In this document: piece by piece, positions 31,401-62,300 of the stretch
How the letters are laid out: the number at the start of each line of letters is the position of its first letter
Numbering within the stretch: the stretch's first letter is position 1
Assembly (NCBI GenBank): GCA_965649765.1
Contig: OZ287748.1
Coordinates: 84,382,001 to 84,446,000, forward strand
Source: Bispira polyomma
Lineage: Eukaryota
Reading direction: 5' to 3'
DNA: 64,000 bases
Notes under the pieces: generated by a model
Told to the model about the DNA's origin: nothing
Database searches by the model: none
What the model saw: the letters and a program-made list of their open reading frames with translations, nothing else
Position numbers and translations under genes: made by a program

Positions 31401-34400
31401 ATCAGCCATTGGGTCTCAGAATATGAAGTCAGCCATCAATCAGCTGTCCATTATTAACCGATTGAATTTGATTGAGCTATAACAAATTCCTAATGAGAAA
31501 ACTCAGTGATAAGCACTTTTATACCCCCAGCTAGGGTCATGTGACCTTTAAGAAAGTCAAAGATCAAATCCAAGTATCTGTAAAATTGCTGCAGTGCCAG
31601 GGAACCAGACATGAAACAAATAAGCACCCTTTTCAAGAGACGCTGAATATTAGATGTAGGACTTGAGCCCTATTTGATGTGGGACCTGAGTCCTATTTGA
31701 TGTAGGACCCGATCCTTATTAGATGTAAGACCCGAGCCCTATTTGATGTAGGACATGAACCCTATTTAATGTAGGACCTGAGCCCTATTTGATGTAGGAC
31801 CTGAGCCCTATTTGATGTAGGACATGAGCCCTATTTGATGTAGGACATGGGACCTTTTTAATGTAGCACCTGAGCCCTATTTGATGTAGGACATGAGACC
31901 TATTTAATGTAGGACCTGAGCCCTATTTGATGTAGAACCTGAGCTCTATTTGATGTAGGACCTGAGCCCTATTTGATATGGGACCTGAGCCCTATTTGAT
32001 GTGGGACCTGAGCCCTATTTGATGTAGGACCTGAGCTCTATTTGATGTAGGACCTGAGCTCTATTTGATGTAGGACCTGAGCTCTATTTGATGTAGGACC
32101 TGAGCTCTATTTGATGTAGGACCTGAGCCCTATTTGATATGGGACCTGAGCTCTATTTGATGTGGGACCTGAGCCATATTTGATGTAGGACCTGAGCTCT
32201 ATTTGATGAAAGACCTGAGCTCTATTTGATGTGGGACCTGAGCTCTATTTGATGTGGGACCTGAGCTCTATTTGATGTGGGACCTGAGCCATATTTGATG
32301 TAGGACCTGAGCTCTATTTGATGAAAGACCTGAGCTCTATTTGATGTGGGACCTGAGCTCTATTTGATGTGGGACCTGAGCCCTATTTGATGTAAGACCT
32401 GAGCCCTATTTGATGTGGGACCTGAGCCCTATTTGATGTAGAACCTGAGCTCTATTTGATGTAGGACCTGAGCTCTATTTGATGTGGGACCCGAGCCGTA
32501 TTTGATGTAGGACCTGAGCCCTATTTGGTGTAGGACCTGAGCCCTATTTGATGTGGGACCTGAGCCCTATTTGATGTAGGACCTGAGCTCTATTTGATGT
32601 AGGACATGAGCCCTATTTAATGTAGGACCTGAGCCCTATTTGATGTAGGACCTGAGCCCTATTTGATGTAGGACATGAGCCCTATTTGATGTAGGACATG
32701 GGACCTTTTTAATGTAGCACCTGAGCCCTATTTGATGTAGGACATGAGACCTATTTAATGTAGGACCTGAGCCCTATTTGATGTAGAACCTGAGCTCTAT
32801 TTGATGTAGGACCTGAGCCCTATTTGATATGGGACCTGAGCCCTATTTGATGTAGGACCTGAGCCCTATTTGATGTAGGACCTGAGCTCTATTTGATGTA
32901 GGACCTGAGCTCTATTTGATGTAGGACCTGAGCCCTATTTGATATGGGACCTGAGCTCTATTTGATGTGGGACCTGAGCCATATTTGATGTAGGACCTGA
33001 GCTCTATTTGATGCAAGACCTGAGCTCTATTTGATGTGGGACCTGAGCTCTATTTGATGTGGGACCTGAGCCCTATTTGATGTAAGACCTGAGCCCTATT
33101 TGATGTGGGACCTGAGCCCTATTTGATGTAGAACCTGAGCTCTATTTGATGTAGGACCTGAGCTCTATTTGATGTGGGACCCGAGCCGTATTTGATGTAG
33201 GACCTGAGCCCTATTTGATGTAGGACCTGAGCCCTATTTGATGTGGGACCTGAGCCCTATTTGATGTAGGACCTGAGCTCTATTTGATGTAGGACCTGAG
33301 CTCTATTTGATGTAGGACCTGAGCCCTATTTTATGTAGGACTTAAGCCCTATTTGATGTAGGACCTGAGCCCTATTTGATGTAGGACCTGAGCCCTATTT
33401 GATGTAGGACCTGAGCCCTATTTGATGTAGGACTTAACCCCTATTTGATGTAGGACCTGAGCTCTATTGGTGTACGACATACGAGAATAAGAGGTTTGTG
33501 TCTATTTATAAAGGATCACACACCATGATGGTTGCTGTTGCAGTTCCACTCTCTCCTCCCCAGCATTCACCTATGTTTGGACACTTAGCCTCTTCACATA
33601 CCTAATAAAACAATAGAAAACCTTCCATGATTCTGTAAGAAATTTTCACTAACAACACACACATGCCATTTCATGACAGCCAAAAATAAAATCTGGAGAT
33701 ACATGCCAGTTCATGACAGCCAAAAATAAAATCTGGAGTTACTAGGCAAAGCTTTCAGGCTTTTGTTTTTCCATTGGTTACCGTTATTACTATCGAGTAA
33801 GAGTGTACAGTAGATGCTCTGTAACTAGAACCAGTTTAAGTAGAACCAATATTAGGCTCCCAACATTCAAAACTACTAGTTTTAACTTAGGCCACAAGAA
33901 GTTCCCCATAAAAGTAGGACCATATAGTGTATATTGAACATTTAACTGATGCAGAATTTACTGCACAAATAGAAGTACATGCAATGCCATGCATACATTT
34001 TGATAAAATACAAAGACATCTTCAACTTGGGAGAATTGATCTTGGCATTAGTTTTACCATTACGCTATGCTTTATAATAATACAATACATATTAAAGAGG
34101 ATACTAGTAAATGAAACATGGATTAAAGAAAACAAACAAATTGCATGTGAATGCTGAAAGATAATGCCTTACATTATAATTAGAGTGACAAACATGATTT
34201 AAAAGACTTACAAAGAGTGAAAACATCCTTAGAAATTAAACACTAAAGAAAACGTTAAAACTCACTGTGTGTAAATTTAGAGATCTCAGCGATTCTGTTA
34301 ATTTGTTGAAATTTTTCCCCATTGGAATTTCTTTCTTTAACCATGGTGGAAGTGCTAATCTAAATAAACAAGATAAACTCCATTACAATAAAAAACAAGA

Positions 34401-47327: not shown

Positions 47328-50300
47328 ATGGATGCCATTAACATGGATGGTTATGAAGCACTTGGGTGTCTACATGACATGTTTAGAGAACAAGTGAAGA
47401 AAACACCTAAGAAAACAGCAGTGGTAGCAGATGACGGGAGACAACTGACCTTTCAGGTGACGTATCTATATAATATTAATACACACAAGTGTGTTTAAGG
47501 GGTTGTCAGCATTGTAGGCAACCGTTTTTGGTATTGATGGAAACCTTAGGCTATACAACCAATTAATCTGATGTTATTTTCTAAACTTAGACTTCACAAA
47601 CAATATAAAAACATTTTTGCTCGTAAAACTCACCATTTTTGACTGACTGCTGCTACTGGTAATGTCAAAGCCAACATCATAATTGACGTGTCCATCACAG
47701 CCAACATAATAATTGGTGTGTTTATCAAATCAGCTTTCCCTCTCTGTTTGGCTCGGGATGGTAATAATTTTATGATATAAGCATTTGTAAAGCACCAAAA
47801 TTGATAAAACATCCTCAAAGGCAGTGATTCTCCAGATAAGTTTAGTCCATTAAAAGAAGAAATTAGTCTCAGAAAGCACTTGTTTTGGGAGGGTAGGCAA
47901 GCCTGAAAAGGGAGGTCTTCAATTGAGTACTAAAACTGAAGCCACAACAGCAAAGACATATCATCCAATCTGCATATTGGGATGCAAAACGGAGACTGAC
48001 AACCTGTTGGCATTTACTGGGCCACTAGTCCAAATAGATGAAGATAAATGGAAGTTGGGGTGGATCAAGATTGATGGCTTAAAACACCAAGGCATATTAT
48101 AGTTTAGAAGTATATGATGCTCTATCAGTAATTAGTGAAACTTATTTAGGTATGATGGTACACTGCTAAGTCGATCCAATTGATATTGATAGATAGTACA
48201 ACAGAAAGTATTTTCACTCTTTGAAGCTAATGCTAAATTAGCTAAAGTTGTTGTTCCATTTATTATTTTTTTCCAACCAAGGAGGTTATGTTTTTACAAA
48301 TGTCTGTTGGTTGGTCAGTTGGTTTATCACACTTTAATTAAATTTGGTGGGATGGGATATACCATAAGATATTGTATGGTATCTTCTTCTTCCTTTATTA
48401 AAGTTACTGTATAATGTGTAAATTAAAGTTCTGATATCATCCATTACCTGGTGAGAAAGTTAAAAAGAGTTTGCAAATTGTAAAAGCCAGTGTTTTTTGA
48501 CAAAAAATGTTAAACAAAATGCGCTTTGTAAAAGTATTAACTCATATCTTTTTAAGAAAGACACAAAATTCACTAACCGGAATTCTCTGGTTGACTATAA
48601 TGATGGTTTTTGCAGAAAACCAAACTCTTATATAAATGGTTATAAATGTTATAATCGAGGTCCACATGTTTGTATAAATGTTTCCAGGAACTGGATGATG
48701 CGACGGAGCAGTTAAGCCAGTACCTGCGTGTGTTGGGAGTCAAACCCGACCATATAGTGGGCATATATATGGAGAGATGTATTGAGTTCACCATAGCTTA
48801 TATAGCGATACTCAAAGCTGGTATAACTTGTAGTATTGTGTGTACAGTCAAACCCATCTAAGTAGAACTCTGTGAAGTCAGTTTCCCCATTGATATTGAA
48901 GTAATTATGTAGTCCTGCTTTGACCTATGCGTCTGAAATTTACCCTCTTTGGTGGAAATTGTATTTGAGTAGAATTATTTATTGTGGCTTCTAATAAGTT
49001 TGACTTGAAGGGGTTGAACTGTACATGTATAGTCAAACACTTTGAAGTAGAAAGTAGTCATATATAATATATGAAGATAGTCAAACTTAAGCTATAAATG
49101 TAGGAGGAGCTTTGTTTGCAGCTCTCGTAGCCGATGGGAGTTTACTTATAAAAATAAAGGGAGAGCTAGCTGAGTGAAATATATTTAAGAGGGGAGAATT
49201 CTCTCAGTATTGATTCTAGAGAAAGGTGATTCTTGTTGTCCCTTTGTGTTAGATTATTGACTTATGTAACACAGTAGAACCTCTATTATCCAAACTTCTA
49301 TTATCAGAATAATCACTAATTTCCAAGACACTGTTATAGTGTGGTTTCTTGGTACATTTTGTGTTTCAAGACTTCCACACTATTGTTTGGGTGTTGTGTT
49401 GTGGCTCAGGCTTTGGGGTGGTGTAGCCTTGTCAGATTGACTAAGAAGATACAGCTTTATTTTCCATGTTTATTTGTTATAACGTTTACAATTAGTTATC
49501 CCCTGAGTGTTTCTGGCTGAGCTCCTATTTCATTTATTGCCAGCTAGAGCTGAACTGTAACTATAAGTCTAACTGTTTATTAGGCATAGCTTTCTGCACT
49601 AAACTTAATACTTCTATTTATAGAACTCAGAACTCATCTCTATCATCTCTGTGAAACTATCTTTGCACCTCTGCTTTTCCACTCTTCAACTCTGCAACTC
49701 TGCTACACAATTCAATCAGGCCATTTATATACTTGAACAAAAGGATATGATTCATACCTTTAATACATTGAGAACTTTCTTAAAATAACCTTATCAAGAC
49801 TCATCTAAAGTTTTCACAAGTTATAAAGTTATACAGTTAAGCAATACTAAACCACTAAAACATACACACTACTAGAGAAAGGCCAATCCTCCTACACAAA
49901 CAGTTTTCTTGAAAATGATCATCCAGAACTTTGTCTTTACCTAGAAATGTGCCATTATCAGAGGAGGATGTGGATCTGTGGTTACCTTAAACATAACATT
50001 TTTAACCACCATATGAAATAAATATTGATGTGATTGAACTCAACTTAAAGGGTCATTCTATTACTGTAATACAGTGGCACATGTTTATTTCTTTTTAACT
50101 GTGTTTCTATGATTGTAAAAGTTTGTACAAGTGACAATCTATTAACTCCCTACAAATCTGATAACTTTTAACATATGAATTTTTCCTTAATATTAATAAC
50201 TGATATATTAACTTTCCTCCTGAACAATAAGGTACATGCACATATAATGTGTGATACACAAAGAAATGATAATGAATAGATATTTATATGAAATGTTAAA

Positions 50301-53300
50301 TATGAACAAATTACTTGTGTGAACTTTACTAACACAACGTTACCCATTTATAATGTAATTAAATGTGATATAAAAGTTACCGCTGATTATGTTTATATTT
50401 ACACCAGAAGTTCTTTATTCTGTATGTTTGTATCCAAGACATTGTGATAATGAATATTGTAAAATATAGCTCTACAACACTTCCCTCCGCTGTGAAAAGG
50501 TTGGTCCCCAACCTTGCTTGACGGAAAGACAAGGTATAGTTAACATGAAGATGAACATGATTACACATTAGTTACTACAGTAACTTTTGATAAGCCGTAC
50601 TAATTAATGAACATCGAAAATGTAGCAAAACATAGACATACACATTATACATACAGCAGTTAGAATACATAATTAGAGTTACAATTAATAGATACATGTT
50701 TTTCCCATGTAGTGAAGATTACAAAATGAAATATACTGCAAATATAACTACATACAAATATATACATAAGTGGATCAGTTCCATTACATTATCTACAGTG
50801 CCAACTGCTAGTAAAACATGACTAACCATGATTGTAAGTGGTTACTATGATAATATAACACTTATTTTACGTTAATATCAAACACTGAATATTTTTCTGT
50901 TAGAACTTCTGTTTGTTGTGTTAGTTTGTTTGTTGTAGGAGCAATCAAGAGCTATGGGTTGTGAAGTTGGCTTAAGACTTTGTTCTCTCCTGTTTGAGAC
51001 TGTTGACTGCTGTCAGTCCATTTGTTACCTCATCACACAATCATGTTCAAAAGTGTGATTGGAACACTCTGCTTGTGCCTATAACACAGGTATATGCAGT
51101 ATTTATGGGAGAAGCATGTGTGTCTCCAATACTGCTGACGTGTGTTAATCTGGCCTGTTCGTTTAAAGAGGACACCATAGTTTGCTCTGGTGACCGTTGT
51201 TGGTTGTTGGACTGACACAGACTGTTAAGGTTGCTATCATCATTAGTGCTGACCACCATTGGTTGGCCAAATTACAGAATTGGTAATTTAATAAGTTACC
51301 TGGATAGAACTTAGCTATCTTTATTGGATGCAGTGAACTGTGTGCCACATAGAACTAAGTAGAACGTATAAAACATCTAAATTTTGCGCACATAATTTAG
51401 AATTTGGAAGAAAAAAAAAGAAATCTGCAGAGTTTTATATGCATTGTGTGTTCATTGTAAGATATAGCTTTTAAGAAAAATCTTTAAGGTTTCAATTCAG
51501 TAGCCATATGATCACACATGATAGCTGTGCTTGCTTCTGTTAAAGCTTACACTGTAATGATAATGTTTAGTCTTGCCATGTTTCTACTAGTGTGTTGCTA
51601 ATGATGCTGTGTTTGTATTTTACGTTTTGTGGCTCTACCAGAATGAGTTTTCTTAATATGAAACTCTTCCTTTATGCAACTTGGAATGGAATCTTCGGAC
51701 ACTTGTCTCTTTCCAGACTTGCCTGTTATTTTCACATAGTACCATCTTTTGCCTTCATGCTTGGCAGCTGTTTTGTAAATCTTTTCAATCTTAAGTGCAG
51801 GGTTTACCTGAGAATGAGGTTGAGACTCCTCTTGGGTCACAGGTTGACTATCTTGTGTCTCTGATGAAGTGTTGGACATTTGGGAGGATTGAGTAAGTGG
51901 TGTGGGAGCAGTATTTTCCCTTTCCTTACAGGGTTTGAGTTTATTGGCATGGACAGCACCTCGCCATGCGTTTTGAGTAGCAGTGTTTCTTAGCAGGTAG
52001 GTGTGATTATCAAAGACTTTTGCGATGTAGAAAGGACCTAAGAACTTATCGCTAAGTTTTGGTGACAAACGTTTCTTTCGTTTGTTATTTTTTAGAAGCA
52101 CATGATCCCCAAGTTTGAATGTAGGATGTGAAACTTTTTTATCATAATAATTTTTTGATGACTGTTGAGCTGCTGCAATGTTTTCCTTTGCTAGTTCAGA
52201 GAATATCTGAACTTTTGTATTAAGTTTGTGATAGTGTTCCTCTCTACCTACAGGTGACTCAGTGGTAGCTAAAAAATTGAGATCTATAGGCAGCTGACAT
52301 TCCTTACCAAACATTAACATGTATGGAGTGCACTTAGTTGACTGAGTAGCTGGTGTTCTTCTGTATGCACACATGATACTTGGTAGGATTTCATGCCAGT
52401 TGTTTTGAAACTTATTTATATATGCTCTCATTCCTTGTAGGATATAGCTATTCATTCTTTCTGCTGAGGAATTAGTTTGGGGATGATATGGTGTTGTGTT
52501 AATCTTTTTAATCTGAAAGAGCTTGCACAAGTATTCCAACAAACGTAACATGAACTGCTGACCTTTGTCAGTAAGGATAGAGGATGGAGCGCCATATCTA
52601 CAAATGATTTCATTGTATAGAATGGTGGCAACATTAGCTGCTGTGGCCTCCTTTGTAAAAGAATCTACTACAAGCAAGATGTATTTGTGTCCCTCGGTTG
52701 TAGTAGGCAGAGGGCCTAGAAAGTCTAGGTGGAGTCTGTCAAACCTAGCTTTTGTGGGAATCGGTTGTAATGGTGTAACAGAGGCATGGTACTGTCTTTT
52801 TATATGTTGACATGTTTCACATGATTCTACATATTCTTTGACATCTTTGGCCATTGTATTCCACCAGTACTTTTGTTTCAGTCTGTCGTATGTTCGTTCA
52901 AAACCTTGGTGACAACCTATTGTACTGTCATGATATGCCTCAAGTAGCTCTAGTGGGACTGTTTTGGGAATCAGTAACTGTTTAATGAGTCTATCTTCTC
53001 TATGACCCTGATGGAGCATATCCTCTATAATAGAGTAAACCTCCATGTAGCTTATAATCAGGAGCTGTACGTGTTACTTTCTTAACTACCTTTTCATCAT
53101 CTGGTAAAGTTCCTTCTTCAATAAACTGTATGATTGGCCCTAAATCCGGATCTTGTTTTTGTTGATCTGTTAAACTTACTTCTGAATTACTGGTGAGATC
53201 CGTGAACAATGAAGTAGGGCTTATATCTTCATATTCATGAATGGCCGACACATACTTTTGTAAAACTGTCACTTTGGTTGGTACTGATTTTACTTCTTGC

Positions 53301-56300
53301 TCAACTGTGTAACTTAAGTTATACTCAACCATAGGAGCTTTATCGGTGGTAAGTGTAGAAACTAAGGGGAAGGTGTTTGGCTCTGGTTCTACAGTAACAT
53401 CAGACTTTTCAGGATAAGTGCGTCAGGATAATGCATCAGCATTACCGTGTACTTTACCAGGTTTGTGAATAACAGTAAACTGGAATCCTTGTAGGTAGTC
53501 ATACCATCTTTGTCGACGGCCAACATGCTGTTTTGCCAAGTCTAAGCTTTTCAGGGCAGAATGATCACTGTACACAGTAAAGTGTTTGCCTGATAAATAA
53601 TGCCTGTAGTACCGGATGCCTTCAACTAAGCCAAGCCCCTCTTTATCAGTAATTCCCCATTTCCTTTCACAATTATTCAGTGAACGGCCACCATAAGCAA
53701 TCACACATTCTCTACCTGTATCATCTTCTTGTCCAAGGATGTACCCAATGGCAAGGTCAGATGCATCAGTGTAGAGTATGAACTCTCTGTCAAAATCAGG
53801 GAATTTTAAGATAGGTTCTTGTATCAACTTACTTTTCAGCTGTTCAAATGAACTTTGACACTGGTCTGTCCAGAGAAACTTTACATCTTTTTTCAACAGT
53901 CTGTTTAATGGTGTAGCTATATGGGCAAAGTCTTCCACAAACCTGCGATAATAATTACAAAGTCCTAAAAAACTTTGTAATTGAACCTTAGTTTTTGGTA
54001 CAGGAAAGGTTTTTACTGCACTGACTTTTTAAGGATCGGGTTCAATTCCCTTCTCACTTATCAGATGCCCTAGATATGGAGCTTTTGGGAGGGCAAATAG
54101 GCACTTTGGGGGTTGTAGTTTGAGATTGGCTTTCTCTAGGCAATCAGATACCTCAGTTAGATGTTGCAGATGTTGAGAAAAACTACTACTAAATACAATT
54201 ATATCATCAATATAAACTAAGACATACTTCCAGTTTATTCCACAGAGTACTTCACTCATGACCATGGAAAAGGCCATAGGAGCATTTTTCAAACCAAAAG
54301 GAAGCCTTTTAAACTGGTAAACACCATTTCTGGTCACAAAAGCTGTCTTGTGTTTAGTTTCCGGGTCAAGTGGAATCTGGTGAAAGCTACTTGCCAAATC
54401 TAGGACAGAAAATAGTGTGGGTTTTGACATAGCAACAGTGTCTACCACTTCCGAAAATCTAGGAATTTGGAAGTACAGATAGTCAGTGATTTTGTTCAGC
54501 TTTCTGTAATCCACCGCAAATCTGAAATCCCCATTTTTCTTTTTAACTAGTACCACTGGGCTTGACCATGGTGAAGTACAAGGTTCTATTAGATCACCTT
54601 TAAGCATTGAGTCTACCAATTTGTCAGTGACTTCTGCGGTTTGAGGTGTTTGTTTGTAAGGAAAGCTTCTGACAGGTGAAGCATTACCTGTATGAACAGT
54701 ATGATGGTACACATTAGTACCAGTTAATTCTGTGACATCATTGGCAAAGACATGTCGGTATTTACCCAGAAAGGTTAACAGTTGTAGTTTTTGTTCTTCA
54801 TGAAGTGCACTGTTGTCTAGGGATATACCTAAGCTTGTAGCTTCCTTAATGAGATGCTCATTACTGACATATTGATGTTCTGTTTGAGATTGACTGATAC
54901 TTCGGACTTATGCTGTCTGAGGTGTATTGTTGTTTGTACCTGATATTATGTCACATTCTTGGATTGGTGTTTGTAATGCGACATGTGTATTTTGAGGTAT
55001 TTCAATGTCATGATCAGTTGGATTGAGAACTCTGTAACAAGATGTACCCTTAGACATTGAAAGTAAACATTTTGCACCAGCGATGTAATGTTGAGACATT
55101 AACATTTTGACAGGTTCAGCCAAACAGGAAACAGTTTTTCTCTTGTTATGTCTGCACATAATAGTTATAATTTTCTCAGTTCTAGGTGGAATTAGTTCAG
55201 TAGTAACTGTTTTTGCAAGGAAACTTTTGTTGTTGTGAGATGCTTGAATGGTACTGACAGAGTTGCCAGTGTCTATTGTTAGTGTCTCCTTGTCAAATGA
55301 CAGAATTGCTTTATACTTTTGTAAAAAGTCTTTCCCTAAGATACACTGGTGTGCTAATCCTTCAACAATATGATATGTATGTGTTACTGACTCACTTCCT
55401 ACTGTTATAGGAAAACTAGCTAGACCACTTGTTTTCAGTGTACCACCCCCTGCATGTGTTAGTTTAAGAGATGATACCTGAACAGGGTATGTTTTGTTGA
55501 GCCCTAGCTGAGTAAAAACCTTATAGTTCATGCAACATACATCAGCACCTGTATCTATTAGAGCTTTTACCTCAACACCATTTATGAGTACACTAACTGA
55601 GCATTTGCCTTGATTTATACCGGTCATGACCCTATTTGACATAATTTGAGTATCTATGTTGGCCTTAGAGAGGTTCTTTTGCTTGTTACTTTGAAAACCA
55701 CTGTCACTACTCGATACTCTTACTGTTCCAATGTTTGTCTTTACCTTCGAATGATTGATACCTTTTTGCCTATCCAGGTCATTAGACAAGTTACATTTAC
55801 TGTACAGGATAGGCCCGCACCCCTATTGTGAACTTTTACACATTTTCCCGAAATGGTTACTTTTTTGGCACTTATAGCATGTTTTACCTCTAGCAGGGCA
55901 CTCAGATAAAGTAGAATTGAACTTACCCCCACAGAATGTGCATTGTCTGTAATGAGTGGTGTCATGTCTCTGTTGGTGGTTGCCTTTTGTTCTCCATTGT
56001 CTGTTTGGTGTGGATCCATGGGATACACTAAAATGCTGTGGAGTCTGCGACACATTTTGTGTTACCGCTGTGAGGCTGCTGGCCAGGTCCTTCAGTGTTG
56101 CACATAATTCCACTACCTCTGGGGTGGCTGGAAAGCTGGCAGTGGCTGTGGAATTGTCCTTTGGCAGCGTGTCACGGCTATGCGCACATCTTGTAGTGTG
56201 CTTGGATTCTGTGTGGCCACAAACCCCTGGATGTCTGGATCCAATGCAGCCACCACAAAAGGCACAATCTGAGTGGCCTCCATTTTACATTGGTGGTACA

Positions 56301-59300
56301 AATTCACAATATGATCTATGAAGTGCAAAGGATTTTCCCCCGGCTGCTATCGCATGTTTTTGAGGAGCTCCATCGCCTTGAAGGAATCAGCTGTTGTTGA
56401 AAAGCGCTGCAGGAAAGCCACCTTGAAGTTGGCCATGCTTGCCTTGGCTGTCGCTTCCAAGCCGGAGAACCAGTAATTGGCTGTATCATCCAGGTAGAGG
56501 CTAATCTCCTTCAGGAGATTCTCATCGGTGGTGTTATTTTTAGTAGCAAAGGCCTTCAATTTTGTGAGGAATATCTCGGGGTTTGAACTGCAAGAGTCAA
56601 AGACTGGGGCTCTGTTGTTCGCCATGTTGTCTGTCTTCGGTGATGTTGATGTTGCTGTTGTTGTGCCTGACGCCTTGTTACTGCTAGGATCATTTAGGTC
56701 AGCTTGAAAGTGACCAACCCATCTCCACCAAACTGTTATAGTGTGGTTTCTTGGTACATTTTGTGTTTCAAGACTTCCACACTATTGTTAGGGTGTTGTG
56801 TTGTGGCTCAGGCTTTGGGGTGGTGTAGCCTTGTCAGATTGACTAAGAAGATACAGTTTTATTTTCCATGTTTATTTGTTATAACATTTACAATTAGTTA
56901 TCCCCTGAGTGTTTCTGGCTGAGCTCCTTTTTCATTTATTGCCAGCTAGAGCTGAACTGTAACTATAAGTCTAACTGTTTATTAGGCATAGCTTTCTACA
57001 CTAAACTTAATACTTCTATTTGTAGAACTCAGAACTCATCTCTATCATCTCTGTGAAACTATCTTTGCACCTCTGCTTTTCCACTCTTCAACTCTGCAAC
57101 TCTGCTACACAATTCAATCAGGCCATTTATATACTTGAACAAAAGGATATGATTCATACCTTTAATACATTGAGAACTTTCTTAAAATAACCTTATCAAG
57201 ACTCATCTAAAGTTTTCACAAGTTATAAAGTTAAGCAATACTAAACCACTAAAACATACACACTACTAGAGAAAGGCCAATCCTCCTACACAAACAGTTT
57301 TCTTGGAAATGATCATCCAGAACTTTGTCTTTACCTAGAAATGTGCCATTATCAGAGGAGGATGTGGATCTGTGGTTACCTTAAACATAACATTTTTAAC
57401 CACCATATGAAATAAATATTGATGTGATTGAACTCAACTTAAAGGGTCATTCTATTGCTATAATACAGTGGCACATGTTTATTTCTTTTTAACTGTGTTT
57501 CTATGATTGTAAAAGTTTGTACAAGTGACAATTTATTAACTCCCTACAAATCTGATAACTTTTAACATATGAATTTTTCCTTAATATTAATAACTGATAT
57601 ATTAATTTTCATCCTGAACAATAAGGTACATGCACATATAGTGTGTGATACACAAAGAAATGATAATGAATAGATATTTATATGAAATGTTAAATATGAA
57701 CAAATTACTTGTGTGAACTTTACTAACACAACGTTACCCATTTATAATGTAATTAAATGTGATATAAAAGTTACCGCTGATTATGTTTATATTTACACCA
57801 GAAGTTCTTTATTTTGCATGTTTGTATCCAAGACATTGTGATAATGAATATTGTAAAATATAGCTCTACAACAACACTTTCCTAAATTTACAGTTCCTAC
57901 TCTTAATGCTTTTTCCATTTTCTTAATCCCCTAGTATTCCATTTTTAACAAACTGTTTCTTTCCTAATATTTTTTGGATGATAGAGGGCAGCCTATATGT
58001 CAACATATCTTTACATCTTATCACATCTATCATTATCATCTATCATTAGGAGCATCCTACATGCCTATTGATGTCAGTTACCCCACTCCTCTGTTGGAAG
58101 ATATCTTCGCAGATGCCAAGCCTATTGCCATTTGTGCTGAGCAGTCAGTTCTCCCTAATTTAAAAGGTATTGTATAACAAACTTGCTGACCTCTCTAGCA
58201 TATTATTAATTTTGTTAATATTATATGTATACTAGACCCTCTGTAACTAGAACCAATAGAAGTCAAATTTCTCTTTAAGTTAGACAGAAGTAGAACCACA
58301 TCCTGTGAACATTAGACATTTGACTTAATTATATGCAGAGTCTATTAAAAAAGAAAATAATAAAATAGCCATATATTGATAAAACTATTATAAGAGAAAT
58401 TGGAGTTTACAGAATTATCAGCTGCAACACTAATTAACATTGGTGAGGCCAAAATGATGCAACTTTTAAAAAATGTAGATGACCTGGGTTCAATACCAGC
58501 ATTGCAGGGGCGACCAGTTACAGGCAGACACATAATGGCTTGAATTACAACTGACTTAATATAGTAGTCCTCAGTTATTGGTTCATAACCCTAGTTGGCT
58601 AAAAAACCTTTGTGGTGTTGCTAAATAGTCAGCCTCAAGCCCCTCTCTTCAGTAATGGCCCATTCACATTGCAACAAATCAGTATATACAAATTCGTTGG
58701 TTGGTGTAAATTAACAGAAGCATTCTCACTGCAAAGAATCAGGATAATGATCTAGAAATTTGATAGGGATCAAATATTGCACAAATCTTTTTTTTAATTT
58801 CCACACGAATTGTTGAGGGAGATAAACAAAAGCATGTGGAAATAAACAACATCATCTAAACATAAGTAAAAAGTGACACATCTGCGCAGGATTTGGCTGA
58901 ATATTTCGTCTGTGTATGTACTGCAAATGTATAAAATTAGGTTTCATGTGTATTGCTGAATTCTTTAATAAATACCGACTCATTGCAATGTGAATGGGCC
59001 ATAAGGGGAATGAATGATAGTTAACTGATGCTGGCTGGCTGCTGGATGTCAAGAAAAGGTTAATTAGTGTTTTGAACACCAGATAAAGGTAGATAAGTGC
59101 ACTGATTATAAATTTGAATATAATACAGTTAAGAATTCTTTCCATAATAAAATTCCTAACCACAAACCTGCACTTTTGTATGTAACAGACAGAAAGAATG
59201 TGATTGTGATGAACAAATCCTGGCAGCAAAGAATACAGAAGGAGTTAGAAGTGGCTGATTTGTGTGTTGAACCTCCTTCAGTGACATTAGACAACCTGGC

Positions 59301-62300
59301 CTATACTGTGTACTCCTCTGGTACTACAGGGAAACCTAAAGGTCAGTGCAATGAGTACACTTACAATTCACAGATATTAGGTGCTGTATGTTATATCTGG
59401 AATAATTATTTGTATTTTTTTTAGATCAATGTTCTATTTGTATAAGTGAAGCAATACATATTCCAACAAAATGTTGTAAAGCCAGTCAAGTTGCATCTGT
59501 AGACATCAATATGTGCTCTACAAAAATGACAAGGAAACAAAGCTAAATATCACACACCTACATGAATAGAATAGGAGAAAAAAATCAAATCAAAACGAAA
59601 GTTTTTTTTCCTGTTTTGTTTTTTAGTTAACTCTAAGAATCTGTGGTTGCATTTCCAAACACTCTCATTATAAAATTCTTATAATTACTTTGAGCCAATC
59701 AGATTCCTTGAAACAGTTTTGTAAACCAAACAAATTGCTCAGACTCAGAAAATTTTATCACTGTGAATAATTGACCAGACAGTTGTGTGTTTTGTACTGT
59801 TATGATTATGAGATTTGCACACTTTTCAGGTATCCAGTGCCCACACCGTGGTGCAGTGTTTTCCTACTCTCACAGACACCAAGCCTTCCCTTACCAGGAG
59901 GATGACAGAGAGGCCTGTAACGTCTTCTTTGTGTGGGAGATGCTCAGGCCTTTACTTAAAGGTAAGTGTCAGTCAAACCCAGGCCAAAGTACAGTTGTAT
60001 TCAAATCTATACTCAGTTATCTATCTTTATCCTGGTATCCAAAGACCAAAGCTCTCATTAACCTAAAGCCAACCAATAACTGTCAATTCCCCTTACTTAA
60101 GAGGGTCTCCATTTTAGGTTTTCACTCAAGCCACTATACATGACTTTCCTAGTTTTAGGACTGAAACCAGGTCATCCAAGTGTTGTTTACTTGGCTACAA
60201 TGGTTGCTAATTATATTGCATCCAATGTTATGGTCATTAATTTTTATTGCAATATTGCAAACACACAGTTCCTTTAAATTTACTGAGACTCTTATTCTAT
60301 TGTAGGAATCACCCTGTATATTATTCCTGACACTGTGATTTATGATGCCAGAAAACTAGTGGATTATATCAAAAAGAACCAAATCACCCGTATTCTGTTC
60401 ACACCATCCCTCCTGGAAGCGGTTCTGGATGCTGAGGTGGATTCAGTACATTTCTCAGACAGCATCAAGTCACTCAGGTAAGTTCTGCACCAAGGCACAA
60501 GGTCTAGGTCTGTAGATAAATAAATATTAGCTATTATGAGCACTATTCCATAACCTTTTTTAATCAGAATTGCATTGTCAGTCCTTAGAATCCACATTAT
60601 GTAGATAAGGTAACTGGTAGTCTGATTGAATGTATCTTAAATACTCATTGGCATGATTATTTCGGTTTTATCTCACTAAGTTTTTTTGGTCAAATAAGTT
60701 GTACAGCTACTATATTTGATTCACTAAAACATGACAAAGTTTTACAAAGATGTAGGTTTGTTGGTAAGTGAGTAATGATTACATATTGGTTTCAATAGCC
60801 ATAATAAGACCAGTAATATAATATTTGATTTATATTAACTATTATTTGTTTATAAAAATCAAGGAATATAAATGAGATGGTTTGGATCCATTTAATGTAC
60901 AGTTATAAATACAGTTATGGAAATGTAATGCTAATTGCTGATCAATTTCCTATACAAATCCTAGTTTGTCGCCTCTTTTAGCATTCACAATTATTACAAT
61001 ATAAGTTAAATTAATTTTATCTTTTTTTATTTATAGACTTAAAAAATTAAAAAAAATTATAATATTCACCCCATTTGAGTGTTTACTAATAAGATATTGG
61101 GGCAGACCGAGAACAGATAAATGTTGTCAGACCCTTGTTTAGATAGCTGTTTTGTGTGGTGTTTGTAGAACAGTGCTATTTTGTGGTGAAGTGGTTACAA
61201 CAGGACTACTAGACAGGTGTATTAAGGCGTTCCCCCATGTCCAGTTTGTCAACCTCTACAGTGTCTCTGAGTCACATGACATAGCCTGTATGGATCTGTC
61301 ACAGTGGTATTCTACTCTAAAGGTAAACAGCTTACTTTTTCTAAATTCTAGAAACATGTATCAATCTCTGATTATAAGTACAGTTAAACCCCTTTTAAGT
61401 CGAAACTCATGGATCAGGGGAAAATACCTCTACTTGAGCAGGATTTCCACTTAACAGAGTAGATATTTAACAGAATTTCTCCACATAAACGGGAAATTGA
61501 CTTAAAAGAGTTCCACTTAAAGTGGTTTGACCGTTTGACCTGCAATTACAGCAGACTCTCGACTGTCCAACCTCCCTTTATCAAAAATTCAGATTTTCTG
61601 AAACCCAACTAATATCCCCCATTTTTGTTTTGCATGTTTCTTATGTCTATTAATTGGCTTGGGTAGGTGATAATCAAGGTTTTGATTAAAATATTCACTT
61701 AATTGGGTTCAATAGTAGATTTGGAAGACAGACCACCACATTCAACAAGTACCCCTTTTCTGTTAAAACGTATGTCTCCTCTATTCTAAATGGTTTAATT
61801 GTGTCATAAAAAGCTTTTCTGTATGTAATCAAATTATCCTCATTAATAATATAGTTGTTTTTTTTTAACAGGTGATTAGTAACAAAAAAAAAACATTTTT
61901 CAAATTTAGCTTAAGCTTTGGCTCTGACATTTCTGAAACAGCTCATTGCATATAAAAAAATATTTTGGCACTGAATCCATAACAACAAATTAACATACAC
62001 ATGTACTTGTGCCAGCCATTTCAATATCATCAGAATGGAACCGGTTGTCATATAATTATAATGAATCAAAATGAGAATAAAGAAAACTGCAATAATTCTC
62101 TATTTTGCATTACAAAATTTAGCTTAAAATTAACAATTATTTGTACAGCTTTTTCATGTTTGTTTTTTTAGGACATAAAGGCTCTGAAGTTTTGTCCTGT
62201 GGGGAAAGTTTTACCAGGAGTACATGTAGTGATACTGGATGATGACCTCAAATCACAACCTCTGGGTGTACCAGGAGAGGTACAAACAAAAAGTTTGAAC

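Follow-up and report, generated by a model that had tools for sequence, protein, structure and literature searches.

A conserved gag stop and downstream stem-loop point to probable programmed readthrough in an invertebrate Ty3/Gypsy clade

The window analysed here, a 64,000-nucleotide stretch of the Bispira polyomma genome assembly (contig OZ287748.1), carries on its minus strand a gag gene that ends in CAA-TAG and a pol gene that continues beyond it, which raises the question of whether this TAG is a nonsense mutation or a site of programmed readthrough from which Gag-Pol is made. A sequence-only reading had favoured the latter and described a gammaretrovirus-like signal. Its account of the junction was accurate as regards the CAA-TAG, the 8-nt spacer, the perfect 8-bp stem and the 31-nt loop, all of which are present at the minus-strand positions in Table 1, and pol does lie in the gag frame, with a 304-codon open frame after the stop that carries an aspartic protease.

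Positions 49332-57873 of the window hold a full-length but broken Ty3/Gypsy LTR retrotransposon on the minus strand of an animal genome of 1.04 Gb. The element has two LTRs with TG...CA ends, a target-site duplication, a primer-binding site (PBS) and a polypurine tract (PPT), and its domains are ordered Gag-PR-RT-RH-IN; Pfam recognised, in the sequence typical of Gypsy, Gag (weakly), CCHC, PR, RT, RNase H and integrase. Compared by eye, the PBS differs at 2 sites from the 3' end of tRNA-Ala as given in supplement 2 of PMC13524379. Neither an env ORF of at least 80 codons nor a chromodomain match was found in the element. The caveat that this copy bears further nonsense mutations proved justified: in-frame stops lie at 56349 in gag and at 54910, 54031 and 53425 in pol, with frame changes near 56140 in gag and near 53000 in pol. 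Full Pol cannot be made from this copy owing to these breaks elsewhere and, because of them, the window alone cannot separate a signal from decay. The LTRs differ at merely 15 sites, yet between them lie the four stops and both frame changes just listed, and the copy may already have been defective at insertion. Two sets of DNA contigs, probably from one source, span 50450-56101 and show no differences. Elsewhere in the window are a tandem array with a 23-bp unit (about 31500-33600) and, on the plus strand at 59068-59424, an exon-like fragment of a host gene for an AMP-binding (adenylation) enzyme (Pfam E 3.9e-7).

Table 1. Positions of the retrotransposon and its gag/pol junction in the window
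Feature	Position	Strand	Basis or remark
Target-site duplication, 4 bp, upstream copy	57874..57877	-	second copy 49328-49331; read off LTR ends
5' LTR, 1140 nt, TG...CA	56734..57873	-	versus 3' LTR: 15 mismatches and one 8-nt indel
Primer-binding site, tRNA-Ala-like	56719..56730	-	by-eye comparison
gag (capsid; terminal CCHC knuckle)	55826..56625	-	copy broken: stop 56349-56347, frame change near 56140
Conserved in-frame gag stop TAG, CAA before it	55823..55825	-	direct sequence and family comparison
8-nt spacer GGGTGCGG	55815..55822	-	length conserved across families, sequence not
Conserved helix, 5' arm GCCTATCC	55807..55814	-	perfect 8-bp inverted repeat
Loop, 31 nt	55776..55806	-	relatives 3-36 nt, frame always preserved
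Conserved helix, 3' arm GGATAGGC	55768..55775	-	pairs with 55814-55807
pol, same frame as gag: 87-codon linker, protease, RT, RNase H, integrase	51601..55822	-	
Polypurine tract	50480..50491	-	direct sequence reading
3' LTR, 1148 nt	49332..50479	-	LTR comparison

At the window junction the CCHC knuckle ends 4 codons upstream of the stop. The helix that follows is present in both MFE and centroid structures with a core pairing probability of 0.98, and its score at this offset from the stop was equalled in 1/1000 dinucleotide shuffles. Taken whole, the 141-nt region shows no greater stability than its shuffles (z +0.43), so that only the position-specific helix is significant. Rfam gave 0 matches at E<=5 over window positions 55600-56000.

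A DNA search of this genome for close copies gave merely 2 partial relatives and protein searches were therefore used, the loci comprising the top 30 matches of each of four genome protein searches together with 20 chosen 10-kb stretches. These fall into eight related families (A-H), with RT identities to the window element of about 39-74%. An in-frame stop lies just past the Gag knuckle in 22/22 junction copies from the protein search of this genome, a count made up of 21 copies tallied by peptide (L084 and L088 as two loci) and L237, with three spurious peptide matches within pol excluded. A search of the genome for the stem only, with no stop required, returned 13 loci, and TAG stands exactly 8 nt upstream in 13/13. 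Beyond this genome, a metagenome scan (best 80 of 220 loci kept), a genome-contig scan (4 loci) and viral contigs (1 distant locus) were covered. The first two scans supplied seven further families with junction DNA, all of which have the in-frame stop (L134, L136, L137, L139, L140, with its near-copy L144, L165 and L215); clade rows L135, L138 and L214 are without the junction and were left out of the counts. The stop is thus found in 15/15 families with junction DNA, eight from this genome and seven from other contigs, and none of these copies and families had a sense codon in its place. Among them L134 is near-intact, with a 373-codon gag, the stop and a 1316-codon open pol. A pattern built on TAG gave 19 matches against 0 in a reversed control, 5/19 being unrelated repeats; the TGA pattern (48 matches against 29 in the reversed control) was too loose for counts.

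L057, L065, L070 and L072 belong to another dispersed repeat, one that has internal palindromes and whose match to the search pattern is fortuitous. L232 / L002 (G000:C9:2082621-2082903) is a gag-only derivative of the window family: its gag closes with the same CAA-TAG, and the polypurine tract and LTR follow within about 30 nt. Contig depth is raised over window positions 56061-56700, which suggests that there are further copies of this kind. At L007 / L035 (G000:C3:56174047-56174307) the junction is tandemly duplicated at a 191-nt offset, with stop and stem in both copies.

The stop codon is UAG in ten families and UGA in five (n=15), CAA precedes it in 8/15 and an A stands directly before it in 13/15; the string CAA-TAG-GGG-TGC, whose invariance had been proposed as a check, is not invariant. 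What does recur is a contiguous helix of 7-14 bp starting at nt 9 after the stop, detected in 13/15 families (each at p 0.000-0.021). The other two are L086, in which the 3' arm is deleted, and L140, in which the stop is present and followed by a weak 6-bp hairpin (p=0.057). By comparison, a helix of equal score at nt 9 follows 2/46 non-clade gag stops and 0/5 other stops of the window element, and the mean helix score is maximal at the nt-9 offset. In 6 of the 13 families additional pairs lengthen the helix by 1-5 nt on the spacer side. Counted by script in the register of the stem (MAFFT had misaligned a long-loop family), pairs 1-7 are formed in 91/91 cells across the 13 families, although with related families the independent events are fewer than the cells. 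Covariation, also proposed as a check, is evident in compensatory changes on both sides at pairs 1, 2, 5 and 7: pair 2 is C-G in 11 families, U-A in 1 and U-G in 1; pair 5 is A-U in 6, G-C in 4 and G-U in 3; and pair 7 is C-G in 10 and U-A in 3. When 3' arms were swapped among families pairing dropped (p=1e-4), a value which, like the other p values, overstates the independence of related families.

Outside the helix, constraint is on length and phase. The end of the stem falls in the same codon phase in 13/13 families despite loops of 3-36 nt, and the whole stem-loop measures 20-59 nt. The spacer is fixed at 8 nt with 3-6 purines of 8, G1 in 9/13 and G5 in 6/13 families, so that of the purine-rich, MuLV-like spacer first described only the length holds. 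The pseudoknot fared no better. It had been drawn between a loop hexamer at window positions 55789-55784 and AGACAA at 55740-55735, 27 nt past the stem; pairing of the window loop with downstream sequence is no better than chance (p=0.21 for the best helix of this type), 1/13 families reached p<0.05, and L134 and L139 have loops of 3 and 4 nt. Neither type I (UAG-CAR-YYA) nor type II (UGA-CGG/CUA) readthrough contexts fit any of the families (0/15). The arms encode recurring residues (Pro/Ser-Ile/Val and Asp/Gly/Asn-Arg/Gly), and part of their conservation may be at the protein level.

A 127-row RT tree placed the stop-bearing families in one 28-row group (SH-like 99). A second, unrooted IQ-TREE RT tree of 58 rows (38 loci and 20 of 120 database proteins) recovered a 36-row clade with support of 100/98 that takes in proteins of Mytilus, Pinctada and Sinanodonta. 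Beyond the clade, pol is in the -1 frame at 38 of 46 distinct gag ends, in the +1 frame at 4 and in frame at 4, these last being single copies whose kin are -1; 5 additional rows are single ORFs. The generalisation that Gypsy elements mostly use frameshifting or a single ORF stands for this sample outside the clade. In-frame gag stops are already known in fungal Ty3/Gypsy elements.

Among the best 120 of 462 longer database proteins 116/120 are without a Gag domain, and fused Gag-Pol occurs twice outside the clade and twice inside it (P0080 and P0110); as these last two are fused without a stop, not every clade member has one. P0080 and P0110 (and P0166) have short linkers from which the stem-derived peptide is absent, possibly through loss of the readthrough switch. 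Gag homologues end 5 residues past the knuckle in 5/7 cases, and longer, fused Gag relatives were not present among 1401 candidates, which is weak evidence. Pfam Chromo was noted by eye in 24/120 homologues (best 120 of 462). Clade members L214 and L215 and proteins P0009, P0086, P0095 and P0120 carry the labels of Sedimenticola or Ca. Thiodiazotropha MAGs; they are likely to be animal host DNA binned with symbionts. A TGA-family member, L040:7552-9790 (G000:C7:52681500+), has ORFs of 475 and 276 codons past the integrase, the former resembling an F-type envelope (Atlas 0.96, Baculo_F), a recognition that is sub-threshold and has no significant Pfam hit.

How ribosomes might reach pol can be judged from the linker to the protease motif, which spans 30-110 codons and is stop-free in 13/13 scorable representatives, against a total of 176 stops in the other two frames. 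As the linker is open and the first in-frame AUG lies beyond the protease catalytic motif in 9/13, ribosomes most plausibly enter pol through the gag stop. Comparison among relatives supplies the stop, the continuity of frame, the fixed start of the helix, the covarying pairs and the free length of the loop. On these grounds we consider it highly probable that the TAG is a gag stop inherited within a Ty3/Gypsy clade of invertebrates and that the conserved stem-loop 8 nt on stimulates its readthrough to give Gag-Pol; lineage-wide programmed readthrough, as first proposed from the single copy, is well supported by the stop in every copy and family and by the structure downstream. Most ribosomes would terminate at the stop and release Gag. 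While the stop occupies the A site the helix would lie at the mRNA entry channel, where it could tip the balance from release factor to near-cognate tRNA, so that a few percent of products would be Gag-Pol. The signal would be a simple stem-loop rather than a pseudoknot, serving UAG and UGA alike.

It is unlikely, but has to be weighed, that Pol is made from the gag-stop-pol RNA by a non-canonical bypass such as that considered for Tca2, with the local stem not the sole driver but one part beside a distant RNA element, a factor encoded by the element or editing that turns the stop into a Trp codon. Both UAG and UGA are in principle editable to UGG, as in hepatitis delta virus. PMC2194720 provides a precedent for bypass and cites the binding of RT to eRF1 as an enhancer in MuLV. 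The fixed distance between helix and stop, however, fits an effect of ribosome position, and no conserved duplex encloses the stop, for which the probability of being unpaired ranges from 0.03 to 0.90 across the 15 families.

Production of Pol separately from Gag, by splicing round the stop, an internal promoter or non-AUG initiation, would leave the hairpin a role in packaging, splicing or RNA stability. Crude regular expressions find donor-like sites within 300 nt upstream in 8/15 families, codon 3 past the stop is CTG, TTG or GTG in 5/15, and Tca2 has a minor junction promoter according to PMC2194720. Acceptor-like sites, by an equally crude pattern, occur in 2/15 only and both are >200 nt downstream, and there is no AUG ahead of the catalytic Asp in 9/13. 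Nor does a separate Pol call for gag and pol in one continuous frame, for phase to be preserved across the loop in 13/13 or for a helix anchored to the stop. Splicing and internal initiation are disfavoured as sources of Pol by these patterns, and we rate this route as quite improbable.

Could the hairpin instead arise incidentally from a conserved peptide such as a protease cleavage site, with the stop merely leaky at a basal level? In favour of this are the A directly before the stop in most families and the fixed codon phase and recurring residues of the arms. Third positions are nevertheless held: pair 1 is G in 12/13 families across different amino acids and pair 4 is T in 13/13 at a four-fold site. 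A Pro-to-Ser change is accompanied by a compensating partner, and the arms pair best with their own partners (the swap result above), making this a very remote prospect. Finally, that the TAG is a nonsense mutation of a decayed copy, as the further lesions of the window element (in-frame stops at four places, frame changes at two) might suggest, is refuted by a stop at the same place in all 22 copies and all 15 families, near-intact elements on other contigs such as L134 included.

Structure-stimulated readthrough, if this is how the clade makes Gag-Pol, would extend the retrovirus-style strategy to Ty3/Gypsy elements of animals; the others in this sample rely on -1 frameshifting or a single ORF. 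The clade is moreover a natural set of 13 short variants that differ in stop codon, spacer sequence and loop but share helix position and core pairs, and in 100-nt cassettes it allows a direct test of whether position and stability matter or the specific sequence. For annotators, the stop is a feature on account of which such elements should not be considered dead, and the Pol proteins of the clade in databases bear artificial start sites. More tentatively, and with some doubt, it is possible that an old and widespread lophotrochozoan Gypsy lineage, some members of which bear env, gained a readthrough switch independently of retroviruses, the stimulator being a minimal, sequence-conserved 7-bp helix at +12 from UAG or UGA that is read sequence-specifically by the ribosome or a factor. 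Readthrough signals would then gain a new class, and animal Ty3/Gypsy elements their first structured example that spans a clade.

Readthrough is already known in fungal elements and gammaretroviruses, and a report of it for animal Gypsy elements was not found in the literature searched. The BEL element Kamikaze was reportedly listed by Gao in 2003 as an animal stop-codon case. No description of the signal in animal Ty3/Gypsy elements was met with in the parts consulted of PMC6238403, PMC8556966, PMC13524379 (one supplement part included), PMC12440569, PMC4402516, PMC3118150 and PMC6317226. A 2003 survey, as summarised in PMC5009743, assigned 28/51 animal elements to -1; rice RIRE2 has a candidate in-frame gag stop (PMC2754532); and in the parts consulted of a 2026 review on readthrough in animal viruses retrotransposons go unmentioned. 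How an RNA structure 3' of a stop codon promotes its readthrough is described as still open in PMC3159437 and PMC13517186.

The Candida albicans element Tca2, which is of the Ty1/Copia type, is fungal and shares with the clade an in-frame stop, an 8-nt spacer and a predicted 3' structure. Its arrangement is gag-UGA-pol with a predicted pseudoknot, and the junction alone gave no readthrough in an S. cerevisiae reporter (PMC2194720), an analogy that should serve as a warning for the readthrough reading of the clade. Closer in element type, the fission-yeast Ty3/Gypsy elements Tj1, Tcry1 and Tosmo1-3 have one conserved in-frame gag/pol stop, which Tj1 requires for transposition (PMC4600332; bioRxiv 10.1101/2022.12.06.519325). 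They are fungal and, unlike the clade, have a short primary context, GAA-TGA-CT, with no conserved 3' helix reported in the parts available.

Among animal elements, the 'ancient errantivirus' clade, known from Cnidaria, Mollusca and Annelida, bears a chromodomain and env (PMC13524379). Points of possible likeness are the Mytilus, Pinctada and Sinanodonta proteins, the Pfam Chromo homologues and the one family with an F-type env-like ORF; the window element differs in the env ORF and chromodomain match that it lacks. The words 'readthrough', 'frameshift' and 'recoding' are absent from the main text of PMC13524379.

In VEEV a stem raises readthrough about tenfold and its loop is dispensable (PMC3159437), which the free loop length of the clade matches. 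Like VEEV and CTFV, the clade has a simple stem from +12 whose loop length and fold are apparently unimportant (PMC3159437, PMC13517186). The viral signals, however, have UGA-CGG/CUA contexts and structures of 78-177 nt, whereas those of the clade measure 20-59 nt and are mostly UAG-G, with UGA-C in no UGA family.

MoMLV gag-pol readthrough is type III, with UAG-G, a spacer of 8 nt plus a pseudoknot of the H type, and a structure start at +12 is common to MoMLV, VEEV and CTFV, for which a positional argument has been made (PMC13517186). As in MoMLV, the clade stop lies past the Gag knuckle and ahead of the DTG motif of the protease with pol in frame, the structure starts at +12 (8-nt spacer) with a G, and a G follows UAG in 8/10 UAG families. 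Unlike MoMLV, these are Ty3/Gypsy elements rather than retroviruses, with no conserved second stem, a spacer that is not purine-rich (G5 in 6/13), UGA in 5/15 families, loops of 3-36 nt and a linker of 30-110 codons ahead of the protease motif. Judged by these comparisons, the predicted signal of the clade resembles the gammaretroviral one in position, yet stands outside that class.
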